64,000 bases of DNA, taken from Candidatus Sungiibacteriota bacterium (GTDB taxonomy: Bacteria > Patescibacteriota > Minisyncoccia > Sungbacterales > JACQCQ01). The notes beneath the pieces are model-generated. The model worked only from the letters and a program-made list of their open reading frames with translations. It made no database searches and was not told where the DNA came from. The stretch covers positions 12,750 to 76,749 of the forward strand of contig JACQCQ010000002.1 in the NCBI GenBank assembly GCA_016201505.1, in the 5' to 3' direction. Every line of letters starts with the position of its first letter. Positions within the stretch are counted from its first letter, which is position 1. The position numbers were made by a program, and so were the translations under genes. Positions 29,562 to 45,417 of the stretch are shown piece after piece.

Positions 29562-29834
29562 ATGACCAAGGCCAAGGTTCTTGCGGTAATCGCGCTCTAC
29601 CGCGAGCGATTCGAAAAAGAGGGGATAGGGAAAATCAAGTTGGCTCATGATGCGATTCCCGCCTCGAGTGGTCAGGTACTAGAGCACTGTCACGCCATGC
29701 TCGACCAAATGGTGGAGTTCATGGCAGAAGGTAGGCTGGAGAAGGTCTTCAGATGGCTCGGCTTCATCCAGGGATGTTTCTGGCGAGCGGGTTGGTATAC
29801 CCTGGATGAACTTAAAGACCATAATCGGCCCTGA
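29562..29834 (+). CDS. Hypothetical protein (90 aa)
   Basis: ORF only. Confidence 0.3.
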   Translation: MTKAKVLAVIALYRERFEKEGIGKIKLAHDAIPASSGQVLEHCHAMLDQMVEFMAEGRLEKVFRWLGFIQGCFWRAGWYTLDELKDHNRP

Positions 29835-29910
29835 CCGAGATGGTTTGGTAAATCCCATGAACCAGGGCGGTGCAGAACAGTGCGCCGCTTTAAATTTGCC
29901 GAAAACCAAA

Positions 29911-30645
29911 ATGTCTCATAGACTTGTATGTACTATGGGACAGGGACCTCTTCCAATCGAAACGCGCCGCCAGGTCTATGCCTTTGTCTTATCTCTCTAT
30001 GAGACATTTGAAGCCCTGCCGGAGCGGGGAATATTAGTCCAAGACATTGAGTCTGCTTCAAATCGCATCTTGGGGTATGTAGCCAAATACGCTTTAGCTG
30101 AATCAAAATCCAAAAATCTAAAGGACATCGTGGGCGAGATTAAAGGACTAAGAGCTTTACTTGGTATTGTAAGGGACACGTCGGTTCTGGAACGATACAA
30201 AGCGCGTATCACTTTAGAGGCCTGCTCGAAATTAGAAGAGCTTTTTCTCTCACTTCTATCAGAAGCGGCGGTGGATGAAAAAGAAGCCGAATCACCACCA
30301 GCTCTAAATATGCCGTATGATACCATGAGGGTTATGATCCAAGCCTCTCCGCAGCTCCCGATGAAAACTGAAGATGCCGGTCGGCCCAGAAGTGAAGCAG
30401 ATCCCACGGCCTCTTCGCCGGCTGTTATGCCTTCTCAGCCAAGCGATGATAGGTATCTTTCGGCCCGCCAAGAGGCCATCATGGAGGTTCTGCGTCACCG
30501 GCCGAGAGTCTCGGTGGGGGATCTGGCCAATTTATTTATGAGCCGCGTCTCCCGCAAGACGCTCCAGCGGGATCTTCAGGAGCTGATTGAAAAGAATATT
30601 GTTAAAAAAGAAGGCGACCGTCGCTGGACTCATTATTTCGTATAA
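29911..30645 (+). CDS. Putative transcriptional regulator with C-terminal winged-helix HTH domain
   Basis: C-terminal RQEAIMEVLRHRPRVSVGDLANLFMSRVSRKTLQRDLQELIEKNIV is a DeoR/MarR-like wHTH. Confidence 0.45.
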   Translation: MSHRLVCTMGQGPLPIETRRQVYAFVLSLYETFEALPERGILVQDIESASNRILGYVAKYALAESKSKNLKDIVGEIKGLRALLGIVRDTSVLERYKARITLEACSKLEELFLSLLSEAAVDEKEAESPPALNMPYDTMRVMIQASPQLPMKTEDAGRPRSEADPTASSPAVMPSQPSDDRYLSARQEAIMEVLRHRPRVSVGDLANLFMSRVSRKTLQRDLQELIEKNIVKKEGDRRWTHYFV

Positions 30646-30701: not shown

Positions 30702-31475
30702 GTTATGTCCCTTATTGCCGACCTTTTTCTTCCTGCTTTATCTAACTAATAGCGGGTAAGAATCGTCTCATCTATTTTTTGGTTTGATCAGCGGCGCAGG
30801 CATCAAATTTGACGAAAGATATTATTTAGTTTTTAGCACAATTTCGGCTCAAAAGGCGTTGACTTTGGTGTCATACCGGCATACTCTGATATTGGCCCGT
30901 AGGGTTCTTTTTTTACCTCGACGGCTTGGGCTTGGCTAATCTTGGATGAAAGTAGCGGCTAGGCTTATCCCCGTCAATTGGTTATCCACACGAGAGAGCT
31001 TGAGCCTGGAAGAGTCGAGCCATATAATAGGAACATCGCATATGGCCTGAAAGTTTGGCGAAATAAACGAACCGAATTTTTGGTGTCGTTTGTGCGTGTA
31101 AGAAATCAGAGCATGTTCCAGGGATAGTTAAAAAAATCAGGACCGAAAAGTTCAGCGGCTTAAAATTCACTAAGCAACTGAACTTTCCGGTACTGGCAAT
31201 CTCGGAGAGAATTGCGGTTGACGCAAGGAACTTCGGGAGGAGGCGTACGGAAAGAGTGGTTCGACAAGCTCACTATAAACAGTGCGGCATCGAATCAATC
31301 TTGATCAGCTTGAGATTGAGTCATCATACTCGTCCCGAGTGCAGTCGAGGGATTGATCATTCACAACTGAATGATTACGGTCGAAATATTCTTTGCCAGA
31401 AGAATGTAAATTCTTTTTGCAATTGGAGTAAGTATTTTAGTCTAGATTATTCTCAGATGCTCATCTGGTCGGCCT

Positions 31476-31515
31476 GTCCAAATCTTTTGCCTGACCATCG
31501 GCAAAAGATTTGGAC
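31476..31515 (+). promoter_or_regulatory. Perfect 16-bp stem hairpin (GTCCAAATCTTTTGCC tgaccatc GGCAAAAGATTTGGAC) in the long leader of the giant surface-protein gene
   Basis: Seen directly, about 145 nt upstream of the ATG at 31660. Confidence 0.4.
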
Positions 31516-31659
31516 GGGAAGGACGAGCATCATGCAAGAAAAAATATCCATCGGTATACGACCATCGGCTGATACACCTGTCTCTTCGTCGAACAGATAT
31601 CAACTGATGCGCTCGAGGTTTAAAACACCGGCGAGCATTAAAATAGAATTAATCACGAT

Positions 31660-34600
31660 ATGAGTAAAACATTCAAAGCGAGACTGAAAGTGGCCGCCAT
31701 CGCGGTGGCGACAACCGTCTCGATCTCTGGAGCTCTCATCGTTGCCCCGCAATTAGCCAAAGCAGATGCAATCAGCGATCTCATGGCACAAATTGCGGCG
31801 CTTCAGTCACAGATCGCAGCCCTTCAGGGCGGCGGCTCATCTGGCACCGGCACTGGTCTCAATCTGACGACCAATCTTGGCCCTGGCTCGAAAGGAGCAG
31901 CCGTTACTGCATTACAGACTGCATTGAAGACTGATGCGTCAGTCTATCCGGAAGGAATCGTTTCAGGTTTCTATGGGTCACTGACAACGAAAGCGGTACA
32001 GCGCTTCCAAGCGAAGTACGCCATTGTTAGCTCTGGAACACCATCCGCCACTGGATACGGTGCGGTTGGTCCAAAGACACGTGCGAAATTAAATTCAGTA
32101 TATGGAGGTACAGGTGGTACTACGGGTACTGGAACTACGGGTACAACCGCAGTAGGTTCGGGCCTCACGGTTTCATCCGTTACCCAGCCATCAGCTACAC
32201 TCGCCCCCCAAGGTGCCTCACGACTGCCATTTGTTAAGGTTCAATTGAGCGCCTCAAGTGACGGCGATGTGACCGTAAAGAGTCTCACCGTAGCCCGACA
32301 AGGACTTGGCGATGACGCGGTATTCACTGATCTTGCGCTCCTAGATGATAACGGCATGCAGATTGGTTTGACCAAGACCTTCAATGCCAACCACACCTTA
32401 AGTTTTAACTCTCCGTTTACGGTGAAAGCCGGAACGACGAGGACGCTGACGGTAGGAGGCAACATGGCCGCCAGCCTTGCAGCCTACGCGGGTGAAGTCA
32501 TCAATCTGGCGGTTACCGCCGTTGATGCCGGCACTTCCGCAGTTTCCGGATCATTGCCAGTAGCCGGAAACGGCATGACGATCAACGCCAGCCTCACTAT
32601 TGGTGCGGCGACTGTTCAGATCGGCACGACTGATCCGCAAGCTTCTTCGACCGCCAAAAACGTTGGTGACTCGAACTTCATCTTTTCCGCAGTCCGCATG
32701 ACTGCCGGATCGGCTGAAGATCTGACCGTCAAATCAATTCGTTGGGAACAAGTTGGTTCAGTCGGCAGCGCAGACATTGACAACGTAACGGTTGTCGTTG
32801 GCGGAACAAGTTATCCGACGACAAACGACGGCAAATTCTACTGGGCCAGCTTTGGCAGCAGCGGCATTATGGTTCCGAAAGGCAACTCGCTTGAAATTGC
32901 CATTAAGGGTGATTTCGTAAACGGCTCTGGCCGCACGGCGCAGTTCAACATTCGGAAGGCCTACGACATTGTCATGACCGGCAACCTCTTCGGCTACAAC
33001 GTTACGCCGACAGGATCCGGCGGTCACTTCTCGACAGCTGAACCGTTCTTCGGCGGCTATCTGGCCACCGTAAATAACGGTACGTTGCTCGTCCAGAAGG
33101 ATAACACTGTTACTGCAACAAACATTCCGTTGAACACTTCAAACGTTCCGCTGGGATCGTTCCTCTTCACCGCTCGCGGTGAGGCGATTCAGATCACCAG
33201 CCTGCCGATTACTTTCACGGGGTCAACCTCGCCGAATCTGACGGGTGTGGCCATCTACGACAAGAATGGCAACGTCGTTGCGGGTCCAAAGGATCTTGCG
33301 GTAACCGGCGGCCCGACCACGATGACCTTCACTGATACGATTACCGTCCCGACGGGTGATAATGTCTACACCCTCAAGGGTAAACTGGGAACACAGTTCA
33401 ACAACGGTGATACGATTGGTATCAGTATGACGCCGTCTGGCTTCACTGCTCGTGGAACTGTAACGGGTAATACCATTACCCCGACGCCATCGTCGGCAGT
33501 TACGGGTAACACCCAAACCGTCCGCTCCGCCGCGCTCTCCTCTTCTATCGCTTCTACGCCGGTTGTGCAGAATGTGGTGAGAGGTGTCAACGGCTTCAAG
33601 TTCGCGACGATTCAGTATGACGCTTCTAACTCGGGTGAGGACCTGCGCATTACCTCACAGGCTTTGACTGACACGCTGACGAACAGCGCTGTGGCCGGAG
33701 ACCTTACCTCCTGCTTCCTCTACGACGGAACGACAATCTTGAACGATGGTTCTAACGTAGTCAACCCATCGGCGGCCGCCAATACCTTCACCTTCACGAA
33801 CGGCTTAGTCGTTACGAAAGGCACGGTCAAGAACGTGGACCTCAAGTGTAATATCACCTCGAGCGCGGTCTCAAACGGCACGCACTCCTGGGGATTCACT
33901 GCGGCGCAGACAGCCGCTGTTACTGGGTTAACCACCGGTAACACGGTTACCCCCCTACAGTCACTCCAACTTGGACAAGGCATGACCGTCAAGGTTGGTG
34001 GTTCATTCACCATCACTCTTGATACCTCAAGCCCGACTGAACGCTATGGTATTGCCAATTCAACCGGCAATGTCTTGTCAGTCTTCAAGCTCCATGCCGT
34101 AAATGAAGACTTGAGGCTGGATAAGATTCAGCTGTCATTCTCATCCTCGACCGCTTCTACAACCGACATTGTTCAGTTCACCCTCTGGGATGGCGCGACA
34201 CAGGTCGGATCAGGAGTATTCGCCGGATCGAACGTAACAGCCACCACGACCTTGAGCTCAAGCGTCATTATCCCCAAGGATGGTGATAAGCTTCTAACGG
34301 TAAAGGCTGATCTTACGCAGGTTGGCACTTCACAGCCAGGAACGACTGGACACACCATTGCTATTAATATCAATGGTTCCGCCACGACTTCCACGGTGGC
34401 GATTGGCCAATCATCAGGCTCATCCTTCAACTCAGGCACGAGCGCTGACGTGAACGGGAATGGTGTCAGACTGGTGAAATCCTATCCAACACTGGCACTC
34501 CTGCCGCTTCCGACGAACACCTTGTCCAATGGCCAGCAGGCCCTCTACCGCTTCTCGGTAACGGCTCCTGCCGCGGGTGACGTGGGACTCTACAAGTTCA

Positions 34601-35151
34601 CCTTCAACGTCTCCTCATCGACGGTTGCAACGTCATCGTCCTTCTCGGTCTACGGCTACTCTGATTCAGCCTTCTCCGTCCAGGCGTATAACAACAACCC
34701 GTTGAACTCGAATCCAGCGGCTGTCGTTAGTTCATCCACGATGCTCTCGATGAACTCGAAGCTGAACGGACAGTCGGGTAACGCCTCAACAAGTCAGATC
34801 GCAATCTACTTCGATCCGGTCTTGAAGACGCCAACCACGCCAAACCAAGAGGCGATTAACGTCCCGGCTGGTACGACGCGTTACTTTGAGCTCCGAGGCA
34901 CGATCACGGGCGCCATCGCAGGCGATGCGTTTATCGTAAGTCTGCAGGGTGACTCCTCGGCCCCATCGCGCACGTCAACGAACGTCTACGCGTATACTAG
35001 TATCTATGTTGATCAGAACGGCACCGGCAAGTTCATCTGGTCGCCAAACTCAACCTCCACTGCGGCCACAACGACCCAGGATTGGTTGAACGGCTACGAA
35101 CTGCCAGGGCTCCCATCGACCAACATGCAGTCGCAGACCATCTCGAAATAG
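31660..35151 (+). CDS. Giant secreted Thr/Gly/Ser-rich cell-surface protein (1163 aa) with an N-terminal peptidoglycan-binding-like (PG_binding_1-type) domain
   Basis: Signal peptide. Coiled segment ISDLMAQIAALQSQIAALQ. PGBD-like block GSKGAAVTALQTALK...GFYGSLTTKAVQRFQAKY. The remainder is beta-rich T/S/G/N repeats with many N-x-S/T sequons. Confidence 0.75.
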   Translation: MSKTFKARLKVAAIAVATTVSISGALIVAPQLAKADAISDLMAQIAALQSQIAALQGGGSSGTGTGLNLTTNLGPGSKGAAVTALQTALKTDASVYPEGIVSGFYGSLTTKAVQRFQAKYAIVSSGTPSATGYGAVGPKTRAKLNSVYGGTGGTTGTGTTGTTAVGSGLTVSSVTQPSATLAPQGASRLPFVKVQLSASSDGDVTVKSLTVARQGLGDDAVFTDLALLDDNGMQIGLTKTFNANHTLSFNSPFTVKAGTTRTLTVGGNMAASLAAYAGEVINLAVTAVDAGTSAVSGSLPVAGNGMTINASLTIGAATVQIGTTDPQASSTAKNVGDSNFIFSAVRMTAGSAEDLTVKSIRWEQVGSVGSADIDNVTVVVGGTSYPTTNDGKFYWASFGSSGIMVPKGNSLEIAIKGDFVNGSGRTAQFNIRKAYDIVMTGNLFGYNVTPTGSGGHFSTAEPFFGGYLATVNNGTLLVQKDNTVTATNIPLNTSNVPLGSFLFTARGEAIQITSLPITFTGSTSPNLTGVAIYDKNGNVVAGPKDLAVTGGPTTMTFTDTITVPTGDNVYTLKGKLGTQFNNGDTIGISMTPSGFTARGTVTGNTITPTPSSAVTGNTQTVRSAALSSSIASTPVVQNVVRGVNGFKFATIQYDASNSGEDLRITSQALTDTLTNSAVAGDLTSCFLYDGTTILNDGSNVVNPSAAANTFTFTNGLVVTKGTVKNVDLKCNITSSAVSNGTHSWGFTAAQTAAVTGLTTGNTVTPLQSLQLGQGMTVKVGGSFTITLDTSSPTERYGIANSTGNVLSVFKLHAVNEDLRLDKIQLSFSSSTASTTDIVQFTLWDGATQVGSGVFAGSNVTATTTLSSSVIIPKDGDKLLTVKADLTQVGTSQPGTTGHTIAININGSATTSTVAIGQSSGSSFNSGTSADVNGNGVRLVKSYPTLALLPLPTNTLSNGQQALYRFSVTAPAAGDVGLYKFTFNVSSSTVATSSSFSVYGYSDSAFSVQAYNNNPLNSNPAAVVSSSTMLSMNSKLNGQSGNASTSQIAIYFDPVLKTPTTPNQEAINVPAGTTRYFELRGTITGAIAGDAFIVSLQGDSSAPSRTSTNVYAYTSIYVDQNGTGKFIWSPNSTSTAATTTQDWLNGYELPGLPSTNMQSQTISK

Positions 35152-35196
35152 TCGAGAGACTGCACCTAAAGAGTTACTTGTGATAACTCGCGACTC

Positions 35197-35236
35197 AAGC
35201 CCCCCGACGTACGTCGGGGGGCTTGGTCGTTTTCGG
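35197..35236 (+). terminator. Rho-independent terminator (AAGCCCCCCGACG tacg TCGGGGGGCTT + GGTCGTTTTC)
   Basis: Seen directly after the giant gene. Confidence 0.55.
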
Positions 35237-35385
35237 CACTCAAACCCCTCTCGATGTGACGTCGAGAAGGATTTTTGTTCATGTGGATAAAAGGGTTATG
35301 TAACCTTGGCGAGTCTTAGCATGTAAGCATATAATAGGAGTGCAGATTTATTACTCATAAGCGCTCGTTTGGCGTAAAAACAAAA

Positions 35386-35922
35386 ATGAATAAACAAACA
35401 AAGGATCTTTTAAAGATGATGACCGTCGCGGGGGTCGCCGTTGTGTTAACTGCAGGCATCTCAGTACTGGCAAGCTCAATCGGCACCAGTTTTTCGGTTG
35501 ATAGCGCCCTAACCGTTACCGGCAACTCAACACTCGGGGCTAACTCTTCAAGCACCTTCACGGTCAATTCGGTTGGTACCATGGCCAACGTCACGATTAC
35601 GAATTCGACAACGACCAACGCTACCACAACCAACGTAACTTCGACTGGGTCAGCTCTATTTACGGGCAATACGACGATTGGAGATGCTGTATCTGATGTT
35701 CTGACCGTAACGGCAACGACAACGCACTCAGCTGGTTTTTATGTAAACACCTCGGGTACCTCGACGATTTATGCAACTTCACAGACTGCGCATAGAGGCG
35801 GATGTATTGAGATGAATGATTCGGAAGGCAACGCCTATCGCATTTGGATCCCAAACACTATTACGGGTGGTGCGACGACGACCGGTGTCGCACTCCATGT
35901 AGAATCAGGAACGTGCCGCTAA
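35386..35922 (+). CDS. Secreted Thr/Asn/Ser-rich small surface protein with C-terminal Cys pair
   Basis: Signal or TM N-terminus. More than 10 N-x-S/T sequons in 178 aa. Confidence 0.55.
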   Translation: MNKQTKDLLKMMTVAGVAVVLTAGISVLASSIGTSFSVDSALTVTGNSTLGANSSSTFTVNSVGTMANVTITNSTTTNATTTNVTSTGSALFTGNTTIGDAVSDVLTVTATTTHSAGFYVNTSGTSTIYATSQTAHRGGCIEMNDSEGNAYRIWIPNTITGGATTTGVALHVESGTCR

Positions 35923-35940
35923 TTATCGAATTCGCTTGTC

Positions 35941-36717
35941 ATGAAAAAAATTAAATTCGGTCTCATCGCCGCTGGCGCTCTGTTTGGCCTCTCTGCATCA
36001 ATCGCCTGGGCTCATACCGTGGACCAAGATATAACAGTTGTGCTTCCATCAGACGGCTCAAGTTATATCCTTCAGGCCGGCTCGTCATACGATACATTTG
36101 ATATGAGTTTGGGAACATTTACCTTCACGATGTCATCAGGTGAAACGATGACACTTTCCTCATCTGACCGCAAAAACTTCAACAACTCAGGCGGAGTGAC
36201 ATCTTGCTATGCCGGGTATTCCAAGCTTGTTATTTCACCTTCATCAAGCGTCACAGTAACCGCGAGTCCATCTGGGACCTGTTCAAGCAATTCAAGCACG
36301 AGCTCTTCAGGCAGCGGCAATGGACCCATAGGCGGCGGTGTAGGAGGATCGTATCAGCCTATGACAGTGAGCACGTCGCCGGCATCAGCCAGCTCAAATC
36401 TATCTAGTCTCCAGTCCCAGCTCGCAACGCTTCTGGCCCAAGCGACGAAACTGAAAGGATCCACAAGTGTTTCAGGCTCAATCTCTTCGCCTCTGCGCTT
36501 TAGTTCGCAAGGGAAACAGGTCACGCTCCTTCAGCAGATTCTGGCGAAAGACGCCTCAATCTATCCGGAAGGAACGATTTCTGGTTACTTCGGCGTTAAA
36601 ACCCTGGCTGCGCTTAAGAGATTCCAGGTAAAATACGGTATTGCCAATCCGGGCGATCCGGGGTATGGATCAGTCGGACCCAAAACCAGGGCCAAATTAA
36701 ACTCGATGATGCCCTAA
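35941..36717 (+). CDS. Secreted Ser-rich protein with a C-terminal PG_binding_1-like domain
   Basis: Signal peptide. C-terminal GKQVTLLQQILAKDASIYPEGTISGYFGVKTLAALKRFQ is paralogous to the domains in the 31660 and 36796 genes. Confidence 0.6.
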   Translation: MKKIKFGLIAAGALFGLSASIAWAHTVDQDITVVLPSDGSSYILQAGSSYDTFDMSLGTFTFTMSSGETMTLSSSDRKNFNNSGGVTSCYAGYSKLVISPSSSVTVTASPSGTCSSNSSTSSSGSGNGPIGGGVGGSYQPMTVSTSPASASSNLSSLQSQLATLLAQATKLKGSTSVSGSISSPLRFSSQGKQVTLLQQILAKDASIYPEGTISGYFGVKTLAALKRFQVKYGIANPGDPGYGSVGPKTRAKLNSMMP

Positions 36718-36760
36718 ACAAAAAATCCCCTCGCATTTGCGAGGGGATTTTTTGTTTTCT
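36717..36760 (+). terminator. Strong rho-independent terminator (AAAAAATCCCCTCGCA tt TGCGAGGGGATTTTTT + GTTTT)
   Basis: Seen directly. Confidence 0.65.
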
Positions 36761-36795
36761 CGACAAGCCGTTTTAGAACCCAGTATACTTAAGTC

Positions 36796-37944
36796 ATGAA
36801 GAAGCTATTACTTGGCGCCGCTCTCTTTTTATTACCCGTTACAGTTTTCGCTGACTCCGTTACTAAAGACTTAAGACTCGGCTCGAAGGGGGCAGAGGTA
36901 ACTATTCTGCAGACCTTTCTAGCTGAAGATGCCACTCTGTATCCAGAAGCCATAGTAACCGGTTATTTTGGTTTAAAAACACAGGCAGCAGTAAAGCGAT
37001 TTCAAAAACGGGAAAGTATCACGCCCGCATCCGGCATCGTCGGTCCGAAAACGAGAGCCCGACTTAACCAACTGATTTCCGGTACTGCAGATGGGAGCCG
37101 AACAAACATAACGTCTTTACAAGCCCAGCTTCAGGCACTCCAGCGCGTACTTCAGGTATTAATTTCAGCCTCATCTTCGCAGGCCACATCAAGCGTATCT
37201 CAAGACACGACCCCGCCGCGTTTTATTTCTGGTCCCGCCGTAACATTTGGGACAATATCAACTTCGTCGCCGTTTGGCGCCCAGGCCCCGATCCAAGTTT
37301 CGATTGACTGGAAAACCGATGAGCCCTCGGCACCCACGGGATTTGGCTGCAATCCCTTGCTCGCCCAATCAGGCTTTGGGCTTCAAGCCCTCTATTATGC
37401 CGGACATGCGGGACCGCACCAATGCGTTCTCCAAGTAAAAGATGCCGCCGGCAACAAGGCTTCGGCGAGTTTTAGTTTTGCCGCTCCCAGCTGGTTTTCC
37501 GTTTCGGGATCAAGCACGGCGGCATTCTATGACGCTCAAAAAATTGGCGACGTCGTCATTGTAAATAACGCCACGACTTCCCAGATCATTTATAAGGTCA
37601 ATATTAATTTAGATGAGGCGTTAAATGATACGAATGCTCGGGGAGCGAAGTTCAATCTGTATCTGCGAAACGGGACAACGACCTACGATACCGTCTTAAC
37701 TAAAACAGAAGTTACGCTCGCGGGCCGTGACCCCTATCCTATCGGTACCTTCAACAGCCAGATTATTACGATGTATGCGGGTCTTGCGGTTGCCTCGGGC
37801 GAGACGAAAACTCTCTCTCTTTGGTATGATGCACTTCCCGGGCCCAGATATGCCGGCAGTTATATGCGCCTAACCGTTTACTCTGTGCTCGGGTTACCGG
37901 ATCAGGCGTCAGTCGGCAACGCAACATTCTCGTTCCTGCAATAA
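36796..37944 (+). CDS. Secreted protein with an N-terminal PG_binding_1-like domain and a beta-rich C-terminal region
   Basis: Signal peptide. GSKGAEVTILQTFLAEDATLYPEAIVTGYFGLKTQAAVKRFQ. Confidence 0.6.
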   Translation: MKKLLLGAALFLLPVTVFADSVTKDLRLGSKGAEVTILQTFLAEDATLYPEAIVTGYFGLKTQAAVKRFQKRESITPASGIVGPKTRARLNQLISGTADGSRTNITSLQAQLQALQRVLQVLISASSSQATSSVSQDTTPPRFISGPAVTFGTISTSSPFGAQAPIQVSIDWKTDEPSAPTGFGCNPLLAQSGFGLQALYYAGHAGPHQCVLQVKDAAGNKASASFSFAAPSWFSVSGSSTAAFYDAQKIGDVVIVNNATTSQIIYKVNINLDEALNDTNARGAKFNLYLRNGTTTYDTVLTKTEVTLAGRDPYPIGTFNSQIITMYAGLAVASGETKTLSLWYDALPGPRYAGSYMRLTVYSVLGLPDQASVGNATFSFLQ

Positions 37945-37977
37945 AACGAGCCCTTATCCCTCCTCGGCTGTTTCGAT

Positions 37978-38754
37978 TTGACGTTTAAATCCGATAGGAA
38001 GGCAAAAGACATGGACGATTTTTCCCCGAAATTAAAAACTATGCGGCCGGAGTTTATTGGTTTTGCGCTAATGGCGGCCTTGATATTGGCAGTGCTTGGC
38101 GGACGCATCTATTGGGATCAAACGCACAAAATAAAATCTAAAAATTTCGGCAACCTGCCGCCTTATATCGGACGGGATCTGCGTGAATGGAAGATTGATC
38201 CGAAAGAAGTCGCAGTTTTTTCCTCCGAGCAGCTAAGCCAGTTGCATCAAAAACTGCTGGATGCTGCGGGGTCGATTGATGTCAATGCCGATCAGCTTGA
38301 TCCCTGGATTATCGCGGGGCTGATGAAACATGAAATCGGCGATAACCAAGGCGCCCGCGACGCCTGGGAGTATGCCAGTCTGATTCGGCCGAAAAACATT
38401 GTTTCGTTCATTAATTTGGGGGACCTCTACTTTCATGATCTGCCGAATTTTCCGAGAGCCGAGCTGATGTATAAAACAGCCATCCAAAACGATGCGAAAG
38501 TTATCCGGGATTATGTTTCGCTTTCCGATCTGTATCGGTATAGTTATCAAAGTGCCGGCATTAATCCGGCAGCGCCCCTGCTCGAAGGGCTTCAAAAAAA
38601 TCCCAATAACGAGGATCTGACCTCGTATGCAGCAGAATATTATGAAGAAATTGGAAATAAAACCGAGGCCATTTTCTATTTTAGAAAACTTATGCAAATT
38701 GATCCGGCTAAATCGAGCGACGTTGAGCAAACGTTAAAAAGCCTTGGCGCCTGA
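37978..38754 (+). CDS. Membrane-anchored TPR-like repeat protein
   Basis: N-terminal TM. Helical-repeat composition (W/Y/L-rich 34-residue periodicity). Weak assignment. Confidence 0.4.
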   Translation: MTFKSDRKAKDMDDFSPKLKTMRPEFIGFALMAALILAVLGGRIYWDQTHKIKSKNFGNLPPYIGRDLREWKIDPKEVAVFSSEQLSQLHQKLLDAAGSIDVNADQLDPWIIAGLMKHEIGDNQGARDAWEYASLIRPKNIVSFINLGDLYFHDLPNFPRAELMYKTAIQNDAKVIRDYVSLSDLYRYSYQSAGINPAAPLLEGLQKNPNNEDLTSYAAEYYEEIGNKTEAIFYFRKLMQIDPAKSSDVEQTLKSLGA

Positions 38755-40267
38755 AATGGATATAGCCAAAACAGACTGGAGACGCGGCGGCCTCTATGTC
38801 TGGTTTCTTTTGTTTTCTTTTCCCAGCGCCGCACTGGCTGGATCAGTCGCGATCAACGAAGTTCTCTTCGATCCAGCCGGCAGCGATACCGGCCAAGAGA
38901 TAATTGAATTTTATAATGCCGGTTCGGATGACGTGGACCTGTCTGGCTGGCAAGTCTATCCCGATGGCATCGGCTATTTTATCTTCCCCAGCGGCGCTAA
39001 CATTGCCGCCCATTCGTTTTTGACGCTTAATTTGCGAAAAGACGGCCTAAATACCGCCAGCACTTATTTTTTTCCTGGAGCGACCGCCAATATGGGCAAC
39101 AGCTCCGGCTCCGCGGCTTTGTTTACGGCGGGTGATCGTACCAAGGATACGATTCGCACCTTTGTCCGATACCAGAAACCGGGAAGCGCCGAGCGCAAGA
39201 CTTGGGAGTCGACTGCGGCTGACGCCGGACTTTGGACCGTCGGCCAGTATGTCGATATCTCGAATTTCAGCGAAGGCGGGTCGATTGGACTTGTCAGCGA
39301 TGGGGCGGCTATGGGCGCCTCTGCCTGGAAAATTTATGCCGCTCCGACCGTTGGACAAACAAATTCTGCAGCCGGCGGATCTGATGATTCCGGTCCGCAA
39401 AATAGCGACGGGTCCTCAACTCCTGAATCAACCGCGCCTCAATTTTCAGTTGCTCCGCTGTATACGGTTCCTCGGCTGGATGTTTCCATTACCGCTGAAT
39501 CGAACGGCATCATCGGAGCGCCCCACACCTTTCTTGGCAAGGCGTGGTTAAATAAAAAACCGGTGACTGATCACGTGAGATTCCTCTGGAACTTTGATGA
39601 CGGTGCGGTGATGGAGGGTCCGGGTGTATCGCACACGTTTGCATTTCCGGGAGTTTATACGGTTTCATTATCCGTCAATTCGGAAGAGGCTGTTGGGTCG
39701 GAAAATCAGGATGTGAGCATTACTGAAAATCATATAGCTCTCGCCAACGTCGAGCCGGGTGCCGACGGTTTTGTTTCACTCATAAATCATTCGGCAGTCG
39801 AGGTCGATCTATCCGGCTGGATGCTCAAAGGAAAATCAAATACGCAGTTCACCTTGCCCAAAAATACTTTCATCCGCCAAAATAGGACGCTAATTTTGCC
39901 GAATAAAACGACGGGCCTCGATGCCGAGTCAATCCAAGATCTGGCGTTTTTCTACCCAAACGGCGTAATAGTTTCAGCAGAGCCAGCCTTCTCGATCGGA
40001 CAGCACAGCGTCGCCATTGCATCTTTAGCGGATTCCGGATCGAGCGTTCGAGCAATCAATACATCTTCGAGAAGTCTGGAAGATCCAAGAAACAAGGCCG
40101 ATTTAGCCAGCGTTGCAGGAGACAGGGGTGTTCAGGCCGCGGCCACATCGTCGCTCGCCGCCATAGGTTTAAAAGAAAGACTGCGGCTGGGGTTTCTCGT
40201 AGGGGGTATGCTGCTTGCGCTGCTTAGCGGTTTCGGCGCCGTTTTTCTGCGCCGCGTCATCTCATAA
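38744..40267 (+). CDS. Surface protein with two lamin-tail domains and a PKD domain, plus a C-terminal TM anchor
   Basis: LTD signature INEVLFDPAGSDTGQEIIEFYNAGSDDVDLSGWQV. Second LTD-like LANVEPGADGFVSLINHSAVEVDLSGWML. PKD block FLWNFDDGAVMEGPGVSHTFAFPGVYTVSLSV. C-terminal hydrophobic tail. Confidence 0.7.
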   Translation: MAPEMDIAKTDWRRGGLYVWFLLFSFPSAALAGSVAINEVLFDPAGSDTGQEIIEFYNAGSDDVDLSGWQVYPDGIGYFIFPSGANIAAHSFLTLNLRKDGLNTASTYFFPGATANMGNSSGSAALFTAGDRTKDTIRTFVRYQKPGSAERKTWESTAADAGLWTVGQYVDISNFSEGGSIGLVSDGAAMGASAWKIYAAPTVGQTNSAAGGSDDSGPQNSDGSSTPESTAPQFSVAPLYTVPRLDVSITAESNGIIGAPHTFLGKAWLNKKPVTDHVRFLWNFDDGAVMEGPGVSHTFAFPGVYTVSLSVNSEEAVGSENQDVSITENHIALANVEPGADGFVSLINHSAVEVDLSGWMLKGKSNTQFTLPKNTFIRQNRTLILPNKTTGLDAESIQDLAFFYPNGVIVSAEPAFSIGQHSVAIASLADSGSSVRAINTSSRSLEDPRNKADLASVAGDRGVQAAATSSLAAIGLKERLRLGFLVGGMLLALLSGFGAVFLRRVIS

Positions 40268-42529
40268 ATGAATACTAGAGCCACAATTTACGTATTTTCA
40301 ACTGCCTTTTGGCCGCTCGTCGGCGGAGCTGAAATCGCAGCCGAAGAGGTCATTAGACGACTCGAAGACTCGTTTGATTTTGTCGTGATTACGGGCCGCC
40401 TGAAAAAAAATTTAAAAAAAGAAGAAGTGCGTGGCGGCTGCACCATTCTTCGCATCGGCTTCGGCAATGCCTTCGATAAAATTTTACTTCCCGTTCTAGG
40501 ACCTTTCATCGTCCATCAAACGGACAAAAAGCGTCCCGCCCAACTTTTTTGGCCGGTGATGGTGTCATTTGCCTCGGGCATTCCTTACATTTTTAATATT
40601 TTATTTAAACGTCATATTCCCATTGTTTTGACGCTCCAGGAAGGCGATCCCGAATCACACCTGCGACATTCTCGAGGCGGGCTCATCGGGCTGGCCTGGC
40701 GTATGGCGCTTCGGCGATCATCAGCGGTGACGGCCATCAGTTCATATCTGGCGAGGCTGGCCAAAGGCTTCGGCTACCAAAAAAATGTCCAGCTCATCTC
40801 AAACGGCGTGGATCTGGCGTTGTTTGAGAAGAAATTTTCCACCGTTGAGAATGATGAATTACGAACCTCACTGGAGATACCCGAAGGCGCCAAAATTATT
40901 GTTACGACTTCTCGCTTGGTCAAGAAAAATGGCATTGATATTCTGATTCGGGCTTTTCTGGCTTTGCCCCAAGATCTTAAAGGACAAGCCTATCTTTTGA
41001 TTTTAGGCGACGGTGCTGAAAAAGAGAGTTTAAAGAGACTGGCAACTAACAAACGAATTCTTTTTCTCGGCTCTAGGCCGTATCACGATCTGCCACGGTA
41101 TTTAGCCATTGCCGACGTATTTGTACGTCCCTCGCGCTCCGAAGGCATGGGCAATTCATTTATTGAAGCCATGGCGGCCGGTGTGCCCATCATTGGAACG
41201 CCGGTCGGCGGTATCCCCGAGTTTTTAGTTGATGGGGAGACTGGTCTTTTGGCCGAGCCTGAAAATCCAAACTCAACGGCAGCTGCCATCGGGCGAATTT
41301 TAACTGACACCCGGCTGCGGAATTTGCTTATCGAAGCGGGCAAGAAAAAGGCCCAAGAATATAATTGGCACGATATTAGCGAAAAATACGGGGCAGTGTT
41401 CCTGGCAGAAATGAATAAAAAAAGATCAGTTCTGATTGCAACAGGCATCTTCCCGCCGGCAATCGGCGGGCCGGCGCTGTATGCGTTAGCACTGGCCGAC
41501 TATTTTAAACAGAAAGGCTGGCAGGTCTCGATACTTACCTATGCTCATGGTGATCCAACTGCAGGAGTTCATCGCGTCTCCCTGGAGATCCCAAGCGGCG
41601 TGCGGCATAGCCTGACATTTTTAAAAGCCATCAATCTCGTTTTTAAAGCGGATGCCGTTTTACTGCTGGATCATGCAAGCCTGGGATTTCCTGTCGCTAT
41701 CGCAAGCCGCATTTTGGGAAAACGCTATATCGTCCGCGTGGGCGGTGATTTTCTTTGGGAGGGATTTGTGATGAGCCGCCGAGCGGAGCTTTCCCTCCCG
41801 GATTTCTATCAACGGGCGCCGGATTTATCCTTCAAGGAGCGAATTATTTTTCAGGCGGTGCGTTATACTCTGCAGCATGCCGCAACAGTTGCTTTTAATA
41901 CCGAATGGCAAAAAGATATTTTTATTCGAGCTTATGGCTTAGACCCAACTAAAGTAACAGTCGTGCAAAACGTCTGCCTGGCTCGCCAGGGTGCGGCCCA
42001 AGAGTCAGAGAGAGAATACAGCCGCTTTTTATATGTTGGCCGATTTTTGTTTTTAAAGAATCTCAAAAGAACCATACGTTCATTTATCACAGCGCAAAAA
42101 AAAATGAACAGGCCGTTTATGTTTGAAATCATCGGCGAAGGCCCCGAGGAGGAAGCGCTGAAAACGTTCGTCAAAACTTTACATACCGATCGGGTGGTCT
42201 TTCATGCCTCGATGGCCCAAAAAGATATGTTTGAGAGGCTTGAATCCGCCCGCGCCGCCGCCGTCGCGTCATATTCCGATGTAGCCCCGAACATTATTAC
42301 CGAGTCTTTGGCGCTTGGCACACCGGCCATTCTGACCAAGTATTCAGGCCTGGAAAAGGCGAGAGCAGACGGCGTTTTGCGTGTCGATCCGCTTGATGAA
42401 TCATCCATTGAGGCGGCATTTTTGCGTATGATGGATGACGGCCAGTATGCGGATCTGCGAAAAGCTGTCGCAGTGTCGTCTCCAAGATCTTGGAGCGACG
42501 TGGCAAAAGAGTATGCAGTGCTGCTTTAG
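40268..42529 (+). CDS. Tandem two-module glycosyltransferase (GT4 + GT4)
   Basis: Two Rossmann GT-B halves. EGMGNSFIEAMAAGVPIIGT-type GT4 signature in the first module and a second GT4-like module C-terminally. 753 aa. Confidence 0.75.
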   Translation: MNTRATIYVFSTAFWPLVGGAEIAAEEVIRRLEDSFDFVVITGRLKKNLKKEEVRGGCTILRIGFGNAFDKILLPVLGPFIVHQTDKKRPAQLFWPVMVSFASGIPYIFNILFKRHIPIVLTLQEGDPESHLRHSRGGLIGLAWRMALRRSSAVTAISSYLARLAKGFGYQKNVQLISNGVDLALFEKKFSTVENDELRTSLEIPEGAKIIVTTSRLVKKNGIDILIRAFLALPQDLKGQAYLLILGDGAEKESLKRLATNKRILFLGSRPYHDLPRYLAIADVFVRPSRSEGMGNSFIEAMAAGVPIIGTPVGGIPEFLVDGETGLLAEPENPNSTAAAIGRILTDTRLRNLLIEAGKKKAQEYNWHDISEKYGAVFLAEMNKKRSVLIATGIFPPAIGGPALYALALADYFKQKGWQVSILTYAHGDPTAGVHRVSLEIPSGVRHSLTFLKAINLVFKADAVLLLDHASLGFPVAIASRILGKRYIVRVGGDFLWEGFVMSRRAELSLPDFYQRAPDLSFKERIIFQAVRYTLQHAATVAFNTEWQKDIFIRAYGLDPTKVTVVQNVCLARQGAAQESEREYSRFLYVGRFLFLKNLKRTIRSFITAQKKMNRPFMFEIIGEGPEEEALKTFVKTLHTDRVVFHASMAQKDMFERLESARAAAVASYSDVAPNIITESLALGTPAILTKYSGLEKARADGVLRVDPLDESSIEAAFLRMMDDGQYADLRKAVAVSSPRSWSDVAKEYAVLL

Positions 42530-44308
42530 CTAGTTAATTTTCTTGAAGCGCACGAGATAGGCCGTCGCCAGCCACTTAAGTTCATTGCGTTCGTTACGTT
42601 TGAGCCGGTCTGCGATTATATTTGTGAGTCCGGGCAAAAGTTTATCTAGCGGGAAGGGTAAGATCCTAAAGTTATATCCGACCAGATCTTGAATTTCAAA
42701 GTTAGTCGATGCGGCGAGTCGCCGTATTTCTTTTTCTTTGTATTCTCGGTGCGTTAGGGGGTGTACTTCTTTGCCTAAAAGTCGTTTCAGCCCGCGCCAG
42801 GTGAAGCCAAAAATAAAAACCAGAATTCGATTCCAAACGCGCCAGGGGCTCCAATAATTGGGGAATGAGATGATAGCTTGGCCGTTGATATCGAGTACGC
42901 GATGTAGCTCCCGCATGGCACTCGCATCCTCCTTTAAATATTCGAGCACGCCAAGCGCCGTTGCCATATTAAATGCATTGGCGGAAAATCGCAGATGCTG
43001 AATATCGCCGACTTCAGCCGCAAGCCTGGGGCTTTGGAAACGTTTCTTTAAAAGTTCGGTCATGCCGGGGGCTAAGTCAACTGCAGTCACTGAAGCTTTC
43101 TGGTCGAGCAATTCTCCTATGATGACGCCGGGGCCGGACCCAACATCGAGAACGCGTTTTCCCCGCGTGTTTCCGAGCATCTGGAGCGTGAGACGTTTCC
43201 GCTCGCGAAATGAATAGCCTTCGGGCGTAGCACGGCTATATTCTTTCAGATATGGGTCAGCCGTTTCATGGAAAAATTCTTCCGGTCGCTTATGCTCGGC
43301 GCGAAAGATATTGACGAGGTTAACCAGTCTCGCTCGGAGGCCGCTCGCGGTCAGCCGGAAAAAGCGCATGTCATCAGTCGCATCCATGGTAATTCGTTTG
43401 ATCGCGTATGGATCGTCAATAGTATTAAATGATCCCGGGACAGTCGTGAGTCCATAATGAAGTCCTGCCGCCTTAAGAGTTTCGATAATTGAGACCGTGA
43501 TATCGCGCGGCTGGCCATTGGGGTAGGCGAATACGGGAATATACTGGCTGCATTTTTGTTTGATGATGTCATTTGATTCATTAATTTCAATACGCGCTTC
43601 ATCTGGCGAGATGTGTGATAAAATCGGGTGAGTTTTGGTGTGCGGGGCAAAATGTATCAGACCTGAGGCCTCCATTTCGCGTATGTAGTCCCAGGCCAGT
43701 CCTTCGTATGGCGAACCCTCCAGTCTAAGTTTTGTTTCAGACTGATTTTCAACCTCCAAAATTAACTTCTCCTTTTCTTCTCCATTAATTTGTTTGCAGT
43801 ACGTTCTTAGAAAATCATCAGCTTTTTCTTTCTCTTCCCGCGATCTGATGGGGAACCTCCTAGATTTGCCGTCAATGGTTAAATCAATTGTATCTTTTTT
43901 TGCGTGTCCGATGGCATATTCTATTCTATCAACCCAGAGTGGAGACTCGTTCCCAACCAGCGCGGTTGTAAGAAATACGGTTGCGGGAGTGTTAAGTCGC
44001 TTTAAGATAGGAAAAGCCTCGGTGTAATTATTTACATACCCGTCGTCGAACGTAATGGCCAGCCGACGGCCGGGATCCGCCGTTTCCAGCAGGGAGTTTA
44101 ACGGTACAATGGTATAAAAGCGCCAAAGCCAGCGAAGCTGATTCTCAAAATTCCTGGGCTGGATAAATTTTTTCCGGTAGTTAAAAATGCCTGACCCCGT
44201 ATCCGAGGAAACACCGTGATAGACCAAAATTGTGCGGCTGCCGGCCGCGGCGAGAGCCCAGCGCCAAAAACCCAGGAAATCCAGCAGGAAAAAGGCGATT
44301 TTTTTCAT
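42530..44308 (-). CDS. Bifunctional polysaccharide deacetylase (CE4/NodB) and class I SAM-methyltransferase
   Basis: N-terminal ITFDDGYVNNYTEAFPIL...HTKTHPIL (NodB motifs). C-terminal VLDVGSGPGVIIGELL...VTAVDLAP SAM-binding motif. Confidence 0.75.
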   Translation of the reverse strand: MKKIAFFLLDFLGFWRWALAAAGSRTILVYHGVSSDTGSGIFNYRKKFIQPRNFENQLRWLWRFYTIVPLNSLLETADPGRRLAITFDDGYVNNYTEAFPILKRLNTPATVFLTTALVGNESPLWVDRIEYAIGHAKKDTIDLTIDGKSRRFPIRSREEKEKADDFLRTYCKQINGEEKEKLILEVENQSETKLRLEGSPYEGLAWDYIREMEASGLIHFAPHTKTHPILSHISPDEARIEINESNDIIKQKCSQYIPVFAYPNGQPRDITVSIIETLKAAGLHYGLTTVPGSFNTIDDPYAIKRITMDATDDMRFFRLTASGLRARLVNLVNIFRAEHKRPEEFFHETADPYLKEYSRATPEGYSFRERKRLTLQMLGNTRGKRVLDVGSGPGVIIGELLDQKASVTAVDLAPGMTELLKKRFQSPRLAAEVGDIQHLRFSANAFNMATALGVLEYLKEDASAMRELHRVLDINGQAIISFPNYWSPWRVWNRILVFIFGFTWRGLKRLLGKEVHPLTHREYKEKEIRRLAASTNFEIQDLVGYNFRILPFPLDKLLPGLTNIIADRLKRNERNELKWLATAYLVRFKKIN

Positions 44309-44310
44309 TG

Positions 44311-45417
44311 ATGCATCATAGCAACGCGCTACTTACCGGTCAAAAGAAAAATGTTTTATCCATCGGCACCGATGAGAAAATTTTTGATCCCGCTTCCTCT
44401 GTGCGCCGCCGCGTCAGGCGCTACGCCCAAGGATTTAATTCATTTCATATAATCTGCAAGACGAGAAAAAAGTTTCCGGTGGAGAAATTCGAAAATATTA
44501 CGCTTTATTCGGTCAGTCCCCGATTCCGTCCTATGTTTTTTGGGCAGATGTATGCGGTGGGAAAAGGTATTCTTCGGTCGTCTTCACAGTGGGTCATAAC
44601 CGCCGAGGATCCCTTCGAGACCGGTCTTGCCGGCTGGCTGCTCGCGCAGAAATTTGGCATTCACCTCCAGGTTCAAGTCCATACTGATATTTTCTCGCCC
44701 TATTTCCGTCGACATTCTTTGGCTAATTATATTCGTTATCTCATAGCCCTTTTCGTCCTACCGCGAGCCAACTGTATTCGAGTCGTTTCGGCCCGCATTG
44801 GGAATAGCCTCGAGGCTATCGGGATTTCACCTCGAAAGATCACCATTTTACCGATTTGGAATGTTTTCTCGTCTGAATTTCCTCATAAAAAAGTTACGGA
44901 TGATATTTTTACGGTTTTATTTGTCGGCCGTCTCGAAAAAGAAAAAGGTGGAGAGGTGGCGCTCGAAGCCTTCAATCATTTTCTTAGTCTCGGCGGGAAA
45001 GGGAAGCTCATATTCGTTGGCGCGGGTGGGGAGGAGGAATACTTACGGGAAAAAGCCAAGTCTTTGTCCACTTCGGTCCAATTTGCCGGCTGGCAATATG
45101 ATGTTCTGCCGTACTATTTAAAAGCCGATGCGCTGTTATCTACTTCTTTCTACGACGGTTGGGGAATGGCTGCGGCCGACGCCGTTTCACTCGGCGTGCC
45201 AGTCGTTATGACGGACGTCGGCCTGGCGGGGGAGGCCGTGATTGATGGCGTAAATGGGTTCGTGCGGCCGGTCGGGGACATTACAGGTCTTGGTGAGGCA
45301 CTTTTTCGCATATACCAAGACCCTAAGATTCTTCCCATGAATCATTCAAAAATTTCTTCGATTCAATCTTTTGAGGAATATGCCGCCCAATACCAAGAAC
45401 TTCTTCGCTCCAGCTAG
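44311..45417 (+). CDS. GT4-family glycosyltransferase
   Basis: C-terminal DGWGMAAADAVSLGVPVVMTDVGLAGE GT4 signature. ATG at 44311 avoids overlap with the convergent gene. Confidence 0.75.
   Translation: MHHSNALLTGQKKNVLSIGTDEKIFDPASSVRRRVRRYAQGFNSFHIICKTRKKFPVEKFENITLYSVSPRFRPMFFGQMYAVGKGILRSSSQWVITAEDPFETGLAGWLLAQKFGIHLQVQVHTDIFSPYFRRHSLANYIRYLIALFVLPRANCIRVVSARIGNSLEAIGISPRKITILPIWNVFSSEFPHKKVTDDIFTVLFVGRLEKEKGGEVALEAFNHFLSLGGKGKLIFVGAGGEEEYLREKAKSLSTSVQFAGWQYDVLPYYLKADALLSTSFYDGWGMAAADAVSLGVPVVMTDVGLAGEAVIDGVNGFVRPVGDITGLGEALFRIYQDPKILPMNHSKISSIQSFEEYAAQYQELLRSS

Follow-up and report, generated by a model that had tools for sequence, protein, structure and literature searches.

A candidate S-layer locus with a peptidoglycan-binding anchor and class-wide conserved partner genes in Candidatus Sungbacteria

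The region described here lies within a stretch of DNA of 64,000 nucleotides (nt; the window) from Candidatus Sungbacteria (Parcubacteria/Paceibacteria), an uncultured lineage for which the reads derive from a groundwater metagenome. With a probability of roughly two in three, it is a cell-envelope locus whose large gene, here called gene A, encodes the major surface-layer (S-layer) protein, tethered to peptidoglycan and building the lattice with six immunoglobulin (Ig)-like domains. Such an S-layer protein family is known as a prediction from a 2024 preprint (bioRxiv 10.1101/2024.05.28.596244), and A is very probably a further member of it. Apparently not described before are the module of helix-turn-helix (HTH) gene, promoter, leader, S-layer gene and tetratricopeptide repeat (TPR) gene, the promoter element TTATCCACA and the accessory proteins that share the anchor of A; in the available part of the preprint's text, no mention of any of these was found. 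A preliminary description of the region had proposed a set of surface-protein genes in one orientation, three of which encode paralogous PG_binding_1 domains, and this core is upheld by the open reading frames (ORFs), Pfam, homologs and the predicted fold.

Domain architecture of protein A

Gene A and the parts of its product, which is 1163 amino acids (aa) long, are arranged as follows:

31660-35151, + strand: gene A, 1163 aa, candidate S-layer protein
Residues ~1-35: signal peptide, assigned heuristically from a basic N-terminus, a hydrophobic stretch at 11-29 and an AKA/D-like cleavage site
Residues about 36-58: heptad helix (37-55 in the model) with hydrophobic residues spaced 3-4-3-4
Residues ~70-150 (window 31867-32109, + strand): peptidoglycan (PG)-binding anchor domain (PF01471), with a 1lbu profile match and a helical model at a predicted local distance difference test (pLDDT) score of ~90
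Residues 151-165: Gly/Thr linker
Residues 166-312: beta-sandwich domain D1
Residues 313-472: beta-sandwich domain D2
Residues 473-624: beta-sandwich domain D3
Residues 625-779: beta-sandwich domain D4
Residues 780-941: beta-sandwich domain D5
Residues 942-1163: beta-sandwich domain D6

No entry identical to the full 1163-aa product was found; NCBI and Logan annotate A from a start that gives 1153 aa. Pfam recognizes PG_binding_1 (PF01471) at residues 79-126 with 24.0 bits (Pfam cut-off 23). A search of the A family profile against all PDB sequences retrieved PG-binding domains only, with 1lbu as the best match (E 7e-8) and further matches to other wall enzymes bearing a peptidoglycan-binding domain (PGBD). 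The usual partners of PG_binding_1 are wall hydrolases, SleB-type and other PG hydrolase models of NCBIfam match in part, and one homolog at JGI carries the name 'peptidoglycan hydrolase-like protein', all of which would fit a role of A and of the anchor-sharing proteins C and D (see below) as PG-remodelling or lytic enzymes. The NCBIfam matches, however, span only the ~60-100-aa binding domain and lie far under the cut-offs (e.g. 23.8 vs 236.5 bits). No catalytic domain was found by Pfam, NCBIfam or the PDB profile search, and the rest of A consists of six beta-sandwiches. An enzymatic function is therefore very improbable and was rejected.

In the AlphaFold2 model of A, built with 54 homologs, the mean pLDDT is 83.5 with values of ~90 from residue 166 on, and the body is all-beta from residue 166 to 1163. 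The six body segments of ~150 aa are mutually homologous, with hhalign probabilities of up to 98% between the family profiles. Foldseek against PDB retrieved generic Ig-domain chains at TM-scores of 0.1-0.2, the top matches including PrgB and Bap/BspA adhesin domains. Column conservation drops from D1 to D6 (mean identity 0.67 vs 0.48); the length of D1 has a standard deviation of 1.2 aa in the family, and that of D6 ranges from 183 to 267 aa. Over the 54 homologs, 49 columns are invariant, and the invariant residues include Cys685 and Cys730.

The bodies attached to the PG-binding domains had been characterized as beta-rich and of low complexity. For A, the first part of this description stands in the form of ordered beta-sandwiches (pLDDT ~90), whereas the second does not, as the entropy stays at or above 3.0 bits in every 40-aa window of the protein and 49 columns do not vary among the homologs. 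A density of sequons in A was not borne out either: 18 N-x-S/T sites were counted against 18.0 expected from composition (P=0.55), the homologs hold a mean of 15.3 against 14.8 expected, and only 3/18 sites are conserved (N309, N731, N1130). The skewed composition of A (T+S+G+A ~46%) could be taken to mean that the Thr/Ser/Asn-rich ORFs have decayed into pseudogenes or are artefacts of low complexity. Against this stand intact frames, the missing low-entropy windows, hundreds of full-length homologs, invariant residues and a confident fold. This explanation, which has a negligible probability, was rejected on these grounds, and frameshifted pseudogenes, a possibility that the preliminary description had raised against itself, were not found.

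Distribution of the family and probable assignment to S-layer proteins

Protein A has >300 full-length homologs with 38-58% identity, and those that are named are labelled 'peptidoglycan-binding protein' or 'hypothetical'. Among the 120 matches listed, 118 are 1105-1262 aa long and the other two have 655 and 912 aa. A profile search of 1.84 billion representative proteins assigned 3,775 representative clusters to the family at E<=1e-30, and a pattern scan derived from 12 sequences, with one genome per species, located it in at least 347 species genomes. Named lineages with the family are Sung-, Kaiser-, Yanofsky-, Giovannoni-, Yonath-, Lipton- and Harrisonbacteria as well as 'Minisyncoccia'. 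In some members (e.g. matches P0299, P0308 and P0312), the six-domain body (profile ~160-1176) follows a different N-terminal region of ~225 aa that replaces the heptad helix and PG_binding_1, which indicates that the anchor is exchangeable. Regarding length, invariant columns, spread and the gradient from D1 to D6, the family shows behaviour typical of a core structural protein and not of a variable adhesin.

Surface layers are known from this part of the bacterial tree. Some Patescibacteria carry S-layers visible by microscopy, and electron cryo-microscopy (cryo-EM) has revealed regular surface layers; in a 2017 Parcubacteria genome paper, the envelope of the Candidate Phyla Radiation (CPR) was still called unclear. 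In the supplement of the 2024 preprint, a putative S-layer protein of Patescibacteria is described whose six Ig-like assembly domains follow a left-handed spiral and whose homologs are stated to be 'particularly numerous' across Patescibacteria. The supplement lists five long entries of 1131-1274 aa (A0A1G2EN61, A0A1F5NRV7, A0A0G1WWP5, A0A1F4NSF7 and GMX59286.1) and three shorter ones (643-727 aa) that include a three-domain variant. For the homologs, the preprint reports confident hexamer and trimer contacts together with p6 lattice models with a unit cell of 18.5 nm, and it places homologs among the top-expressed proteins of Kuroda et al. in two species. That A belongs to this family is strongly indicated by its agreement with the description in length, number of domains, anchor and taxonomy, in how abundant the homologs are and in the variability of the C-terminal domain.

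The preliminary description had left the choice between S-layer protein and adhesin, and the evidence favours the former, given the conserved six-domain architecture and the near-constant length. As an alternative, the A family could be host-attachment adhesins, i.e. wall-anchored Ig-like fibres of episymbiotic Patescibacteria that do not form a lattice over the whole cell. This was proposed by Kuroda et al. 2024 (PMC10936435) for highly expressed PGBD proteins, which are 'of relatively similar structure' and, in three Paceibacteria, rank among the top five signal-peptide genes by expression. Adhesins typically consist of chained Ig-like domains, domains of PrgB and Bap/BspA are among the best PDB folds, and the distal D6 is the most variable domain. 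As a rule, however, adhesins differ in the number of their repeats and come in several paralogous copies, whereas the A family holds six domains at near-constant length in hundreds of species; the domains of A have diverged from one another and are not recent tandem repeats, and the lattice contacts reported in the preprint argue in the same direction. A pure adhesin function is thus regarded as unlikely; the adhesin and S-layer roles may also coexist, as they are not exclusive.

The same architecture, abundance and conservation would also be expected if A formed an abundant but non-crystalline wall-bound coat or sheath, acting as a protective or molecular-sieve layer with no 2D crystal. The authors of the preprint themselves caution that the lattice may be built mainly from something other than a predicted S-layer protein. 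The p6 lattice models of the homologs in the preprint and the regular surface layers in cryo-EM images of Patescibacteria speak against a non-crystalline coat, which appears still less probable than a dedicated adhesin.

Several points weigh against the S-layer assignment. The PG_binding_1 score of A exceeds the cut-off by just 1 bit, a thin margin that is offset by the match of the family profile to the PGBD of 1lbu (E 7e-8). Codon usage of A is ordinary (effective number of codons, Nc, 50.7), and codon bias (Nc, GC content at third positions) does not set A apart from other genes. Lattice formation and high expression are taken from literature on homologs and not from this organism, and the homologs carrying a PGBD were read as host-attachment factors by Kuroda et al. 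(PMC10936435). The comparison of A with the accessions of the preprint was made by architecture, size and taxonomy; family members of matching length that were looked up by cluster carry other accessions or none. The transcription start and leader of A were placed from motifs only.

Class-wide partners: the TPR gene E and an HTH gene

For the analysis of synteny, the ORFs of 85 related loci were compared with the proteins of the window. Two neighbours of A are conserved across the class:

37978-38754, + strand: gene E, 258 aa, membrane-tethered TPR protein
29806-30645, + strand: HTH gene, 279 aa, with a DeoR-like winged HTH at residues 221-268 (HTH_DeoR, 27.6 bits; Pfam)

A homolog of E follows the large gene at its 3' side on the same strand in 73/84 loci, corresponding to 73/74 loci with enough sequence; 10 of the 11 loci lacking an E homolog are truncated contigs, and E starts at a distance of <=150 nt in 34 loci. 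In this window, an insertion of genes B, C and D separates A from E. The AlphaFold2 model of E (pLDDT 91.9) consists of a transmembrane (TM) helix at residues 13-38, a linker and about five TPR repeats at residues 72-244, which individually all match under the Pfam cut-offs. In PDB, generic TPR scaffolds alone were matched, and no domain fusions that might point to a function were found among the E homologs. The start of E is probably ATG 38011 (Met12), giving 247 aa as in the NCBI annotation.

On the other side, a homolog of the HTH gene is present upstream of the large gene and on the same strand in 66/69 loci with >=2.5 kb of upstream sequence, at a median gap of ~700 nt. The N-terminal 220 aa of the HTH protein gave no family match. 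Its position makes this DeoR-like protein a candidate regulator of the locus.

Predicted promoter, leader and terminator of gene A

The following features were assigned around A:

30981-30990, + strand: GTTATCCACA element, which holds the exact DnaA-box consensus 9-mer TTATCCACA (30982-30990), 9 nt before the -35 hexamer
31000-31028, + strand: predicted gene A promoter of the sigma-70 type, TTGAGC (31000-31005), 17 nt, TATAAT (31023-31028), with 10/12 consensus matches
31035-31659, + strand: predicted 5' leader of gene A, ~625 nt, structured, with an unpaired A/U-rich 3' end and no Shine-Dalgarno sequence
35195-35226, + strand: terminator-like hairpin 44 nt past the A stop, with a 14-bp stem including 10 G-C pairs, followed by a T-run
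35282-35290: reverse 9-mer TGTGGATAA, which precedes gene B
35306-35335, + strand: promoter-like site before B, TTGGCG-18-TATAAT

Alignment of the related loci revealed a conserved block within the 0.4-1-kb gap upstream of the large gene. An exact forward TTATCCACA is located 260-880 nt upstream of this gene in 59/72 loci, as compared to a chance of ~0.006 per locus, and the consensus anchored on the 9-mer is (A/G)GTTATCCACA-N6-9-TTTGCA/TTGAAA-~17-TATAAT. The number of 9-mers within the window alone is not significant, so that the significance of the element comes from its conservation across loci. A second, inverted copy lies 80-131 nt downstream of the forward copy in 6/72 loci. Elsewhere in the loci, the motif together with TATAAT precedes B-like genes and a gene for a ~228-aa protein with TM helices like those of the mechanosensitive channel MscS. 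No paper linking the TTATCCACA 9-mer to S-layer genes or CPR promoters was found in a literature search.

Judged from the sequence, candidates for the binder of TTATCCACA are DnaA or the syntenic HTH protein, and a single asymmetric site would fit DnaA better than a winged-HTH regulator, which acts as a dimer. A function of the DnaA box as replication origin was considered and rejected, since there is a single box per promoter, dnaA and dnaN are not encoded nearby, and GC skew shows no switch beyond a dip over the T/S/A-rich genes. This skew is negative (-0.05 to -0.085) over genes A-D only (32000-38000) and mostly positive elsewhere in the window; the dip probably results from the Thr/Ser/Ala-rich codon content and not from replication.

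The leader of A has a minimum free energy of -217.9 kcal/mol, as compared to -165.6 +/- 7.8 kcal/mol for shuffled sequences (z = -6.7), and holds a long hairpin at ~31464-31527 and an 8-bp hairpin at 31356-31375, the latter of which is also present in locus L005. Class-wide, the leaders have a median length of ~425 nt and a median z of -3.7 vs -2.3 for coding controls (P=0.0009), with Shine-Dalgarno-like sequences in 3/60 loci; in the window, none was found upstream of any of the genes A-F. A 135-aa ORF inside the leader of A (31256-31663), which has no family match, is probably spurious. An Rfam scan of the window identified three tRNAs only and assigned no family to the leader or to the rest. 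With its own promoter, leader and strong terminator, A appears to form a separate transcription unit.

Accessory proteins and the shared anchor

The remaining genes of the locus are the following:

35386-35922, + strand: gene B, 178 aa, secreted, Thr/Asn-rich protein
35941-36717, + strand: gene C, 258 aa, wall protein
36796-37944, + strand: gene D, 382 aa, wall protein
38744-40267, + strand: gene F, 507 aa, membrane protein with lamin-tail domain (LTD), PKD and second LTD

The six ORFs A-F share one orientation (+ strand) with uninterrupted frames, and all six products (6/6) have a hydrophobic segment at the N-terminus. Five of these ORFs had been named in the preliminary description, and all five were found exactly at the positions given, on the + strand; its gene set was incomplete in leaving out the TM-TPR gene E (37978-38754), which is the most conserved partner of A. 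Its placement of PG_binding_1 at the N-, C- and N-terminus of A, C and D, respectively, is confirmed by Pfam matches that are all over the cut-off. The domain scans, on which it had made its reading depend, back PG_binding_1, LTD and PKD.

Protein C is composed of a signal peptide, a domain of ~110 aa assigned to no family, a Ser/Gly linker, a heptad helix and PG_binding_1 at residues 190-235 (window 36508-36645; 29.8 bits). In D, the signal peptide is followed by PG_binding_1 at residues 32-90 (window 36889-37065; 44.8 bits), a heptad helix, a Ser-rich linker and a beta-rich region of ~250 aa, for which Pfam returned no confident family and PKD_5 only below threshold. The anchor modules of A, C and D are paralogous, as had been suggested, with 46-48% identity over 94-110 aa (E 1e-19 to 1e-24): the anchor of C is 46% identical to that of A over 110 aa, and that of D is 47-48% identical to those of A and C. 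Each anchor alignment takes in a heptad helix of the 'LQxQIAALQ' type, which precedes PG_binding_1 in A and C but follows it in D. An origin of the B, C and D bodies as paralogs of the A domains was considered and rejected, as it was suggested by uncorrected BLAST matches only and all hhalign probabilities were <3%. Since these bodies are unrelated to the A domains at profile level, A, C and D have just the anchor in common.

Protein B has an N-terminal hydrophobic segment and 2 Cys, and no Pfam or NCBIfam family was found. Its sole match in a big protein database is B itself (HY220_00355, Ca. Sungbacteria). By iterated local search, relatives were detected directly 3' of the large gene in ~9 loci. 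They are Thr-rich, secreted proteins of 178-585 aa with 2 or 4 Cys and a conserved mature N-terminus, (T/S)(T/S)IGTN(I/V)SVTGTL. Members of the B family always lie directly downstream of the large gene, as seen in the following loci:

L001 13731-15068
L008 7147-8100
L009 6565-8289
L010 14555-16312
L037 8679-9629

B was originally credited with more than 10 sequons, and the count is 9. These exceed the 4.3 expected (P=0.007), whereas the relatives of B have no excess (49 vs 45).

The description of F as a protein with two lamin-tail domains, a PKD domain and a TM anchor proved accurate. Pfam places one LTD (PF00932) at residues 32-134 (52.5 bits) and the second at ~322-390 (36.4 bits; cut-off 34.3), with a joint LTD score of 83.8 bits, and both were confirmed by scanning the halves of F separately; of the PKD models (PF18911/PF00801), PKD_4 matches residues 269-326 with 42.8 bits (cut-off 27). 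Hydrophobic segments lie at residues 17-37 (N-terminal signal or anchor) and 484-502 (C-terminal TM helix). The start of F may be ATG 38756 (Met5), 2 nt past the E stop, instead of the TTG that overlaps E by 11 nt.

Relatives of C occur in 13 loci, each time downstream of the large gene, those of D in 13 loci, and those of F in 14 loci downstream of the large gene. Altogether, relatives of B, C, D and F are restricted to just 5-14 loci, which represent a Sungbacteria-like subclade.

Glycan island and possible glycosylation

Glycosyltransferase (GT) genes begin at 40268 according to Pfam, in line with the earlier placement of the cluster just before a glycosylation island:

40268-61019: glycan-biosynthesis island (Pfam), with a double GT4, a deacetylase-methyltransferase, GT4s, a UDP-sugar dehydrogenase-GT fusion and GT2s
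40268-61019, further members: GDP-mannose 4,6-dehydratase, epimerase and two weak PMT_2 membrane proteins

The first of these genes (40268-42529), right after F, encodes a 753-aa protein with two complete GT4 units, which is found in the same position in two related Sungbacteria loci, L001 (20620-22875) and L005 (16872-19289). On the - strand, 42530-44308 encodes a 592-aa fusion of a polysaccharide deacetylase and a SAM methyltransferase, and 45414-47270 a 618-aa fusion of a partial UDP-glucose/GDP-mannose dehydrogenase and a GT4. Three further ORFs of ~470 aa are candidate membrane glycosyltransferases or polymerases; two of them (50714-52114 and 58022-59437) match PMT_2 (GT-C) at 18.2 and 25.5 bits (cut-off 26.1), and 56599-58041 is without match.

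Homologs of the island GTs are located downstream of the large gene in 17/46 loci and upstream of it in 2/53. In a Harrisonbacteria genome (L003 13733-18057), two strong PMT-family GT-C genes directly follow the large gene, and a Lloydbacteria locus encodes a Wzy_C-TPR protein; a Wzy_C-type O-oligosaccharyltransferase was not found in this window. Among the 23 island and flanking ORFs scanned, there was no oligosaccharyltransferase of the STT3/PglB type. As the sequons are, in addition, neither enriched nor conserved, N-glycosylation is not indicated. If the proteins are glycosylated, O-linkage is likelier than N-linkage, with the weak PMT_2 matches here and the strong PMT genes of Harrisonbacteria as hints. 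The island probably makes a glycan for the proteins of the locus or for the wall, for which an O-linked or wall-linked form is more plausible than an N-linked one.

Genomic context

Housekeeping genes lie upstream of the locus, encoding SufS, an intein-containing NifU, superoxide dismutase, HtrA and ClpB (Pfam); the region is chromosomal and does not look like a mobile element. In the NifU/IscU-like protein of 597 aa (19988-21781), a LAGLIDADG homing-endonuclease domain at residues 290-373 interrupts the sequence and NifU_N lies at residues 433-528; the protein looks like an intein-containing Fe-S scaffold. Proteins B and E are identical to the NCBI proteins HY220_00355 and HY220_00370 of a metagenome-assembled genome named 'Candidatus Sungbacteria bacterium'.

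Proposed mechanism and significance

In the proposed S-layer, A would be exported by Sec and bound to peptidoglycan via its N-terminal module of heptad helix and PG_binding_1. D1, the most constrained domain, would be placed next to the wall and anchor, and the variable D6 would form the outward-facing tip of the lattice, while the long structured leader may stabilize the mRNA of A. For the other proteins, for glycosylation and for the binder of the promoter element, we infer the roles. E, a TM-TPR protein whose gene is inherited together with that of A, might serve as membrane-tethered assembly, anchoring or adaptor factor for A or present A to modifying enzymes. C and D could be accessory wall proteins docking to the same wall ligand through the common anchor, B would be a small secreted surface protein, and F a membrane-anchored LTD-PKD-LTD surface protein.

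A more far-reaching proposal is that Paceibacteria carry a class-wide, vertically inherited S-layer cassette, in which DnaA, or the HTH protein acting at a DnaA-box-identical operator, couples the coat and a few envelope genes (B-like, MscS-like) to the cell cycle and in which the TPR protein is a dedicated S-layer assembly or anchoring factor new to S-layer systems. This idea is speculative and, taken as a whole, rather doubtful.

A large part of bacterial diversity falls within the Patescibacteria (CPR). If the A family is indeed the S-layer protein, the locus provides a parts list that runs from the anchor and the lattice domains to a TPR partner present almost everywhere, the probable regulator and the conserved promoter with its leader. 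Such a list could help to annotate the 'peptidoglycan-binding protein' and 'hypothetical' entries of thousands of genomes, guide electron cryo-tomography and proteomics, and make the construction and control of the surface in ultra-small episymbionts open to test. Hosts or phages may interact with the cell at the variable D6 tip. A promoter element identical to a DnaA box would be a rare regulatory handle in organisms that have almost no characterized promoters.

Comparison with known systems

In Firmicutes, one anchor type can serve several surface proteins: SLH is shared by Sap/EA1 and the BSLs of Bacillus anthracis, and CWB2 by SlpA and the cell wall proteins (CWPs) of Clostridioides difficile. 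Like in these systems, A, C and D combine one anchor with unrelated functional parts. The anchor itself differs, as it consists of a heptad helix and PG_binding_1, and scanning all six proteins with Pfam at E<=1 returned neither SLH (PF00395) nor CWB2 (PF04122). In Geobacillus and Paenibacillus, S-layer genes are followed by slg glycosylation clusters, and a glycan island likewise comes after the S-layer gene in the locus described here. The three-helix PG-binding domain of the Zn D-Ala-D-Ala carboxypeptidase of Streptomyces albus (1lbu) is recognizable by sequence here too. In contrast to wall enzymes of this type, PG_binding_1 in the locus sits on beta-sandwich bodies that are not enzymes, and a short heptad helix goes with it in every case.

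The S-layer protein csg of Haloferax volcanii is archaeal and lipid/membrane-anchored at its C-terminus, whereas A is anchored N-terminally by the PG-binding domain, with the opposite end predicted at the pyramid tip. No sequence similarity of csg to A was detected in the PDB profile search, and the 50 best Foldseek matches in PDB did not include csg. According to the preprint, csg nevertheless has the same basic architecture, with six Ig-like domains in a left-handed spiral that form p6 pyramids and a hexagonal lattice. The closest resemblance is to the S-layer protein predicted in the preprint itself (Nealsonbacteria A0A1G2EN61, 1131 aa; Kaiserbacteria A0A0G1WWP5, 1173 aa; Parcubacteria GMX59286.1, 1185 aa), to which A is alike in size, in its six Ig-like domains and in secretion. 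The highly expressed homologs of Kuroda et al. carry a PG-binding domain as A does, and the variable C-terminal domain of A fits the predicted outward tip.

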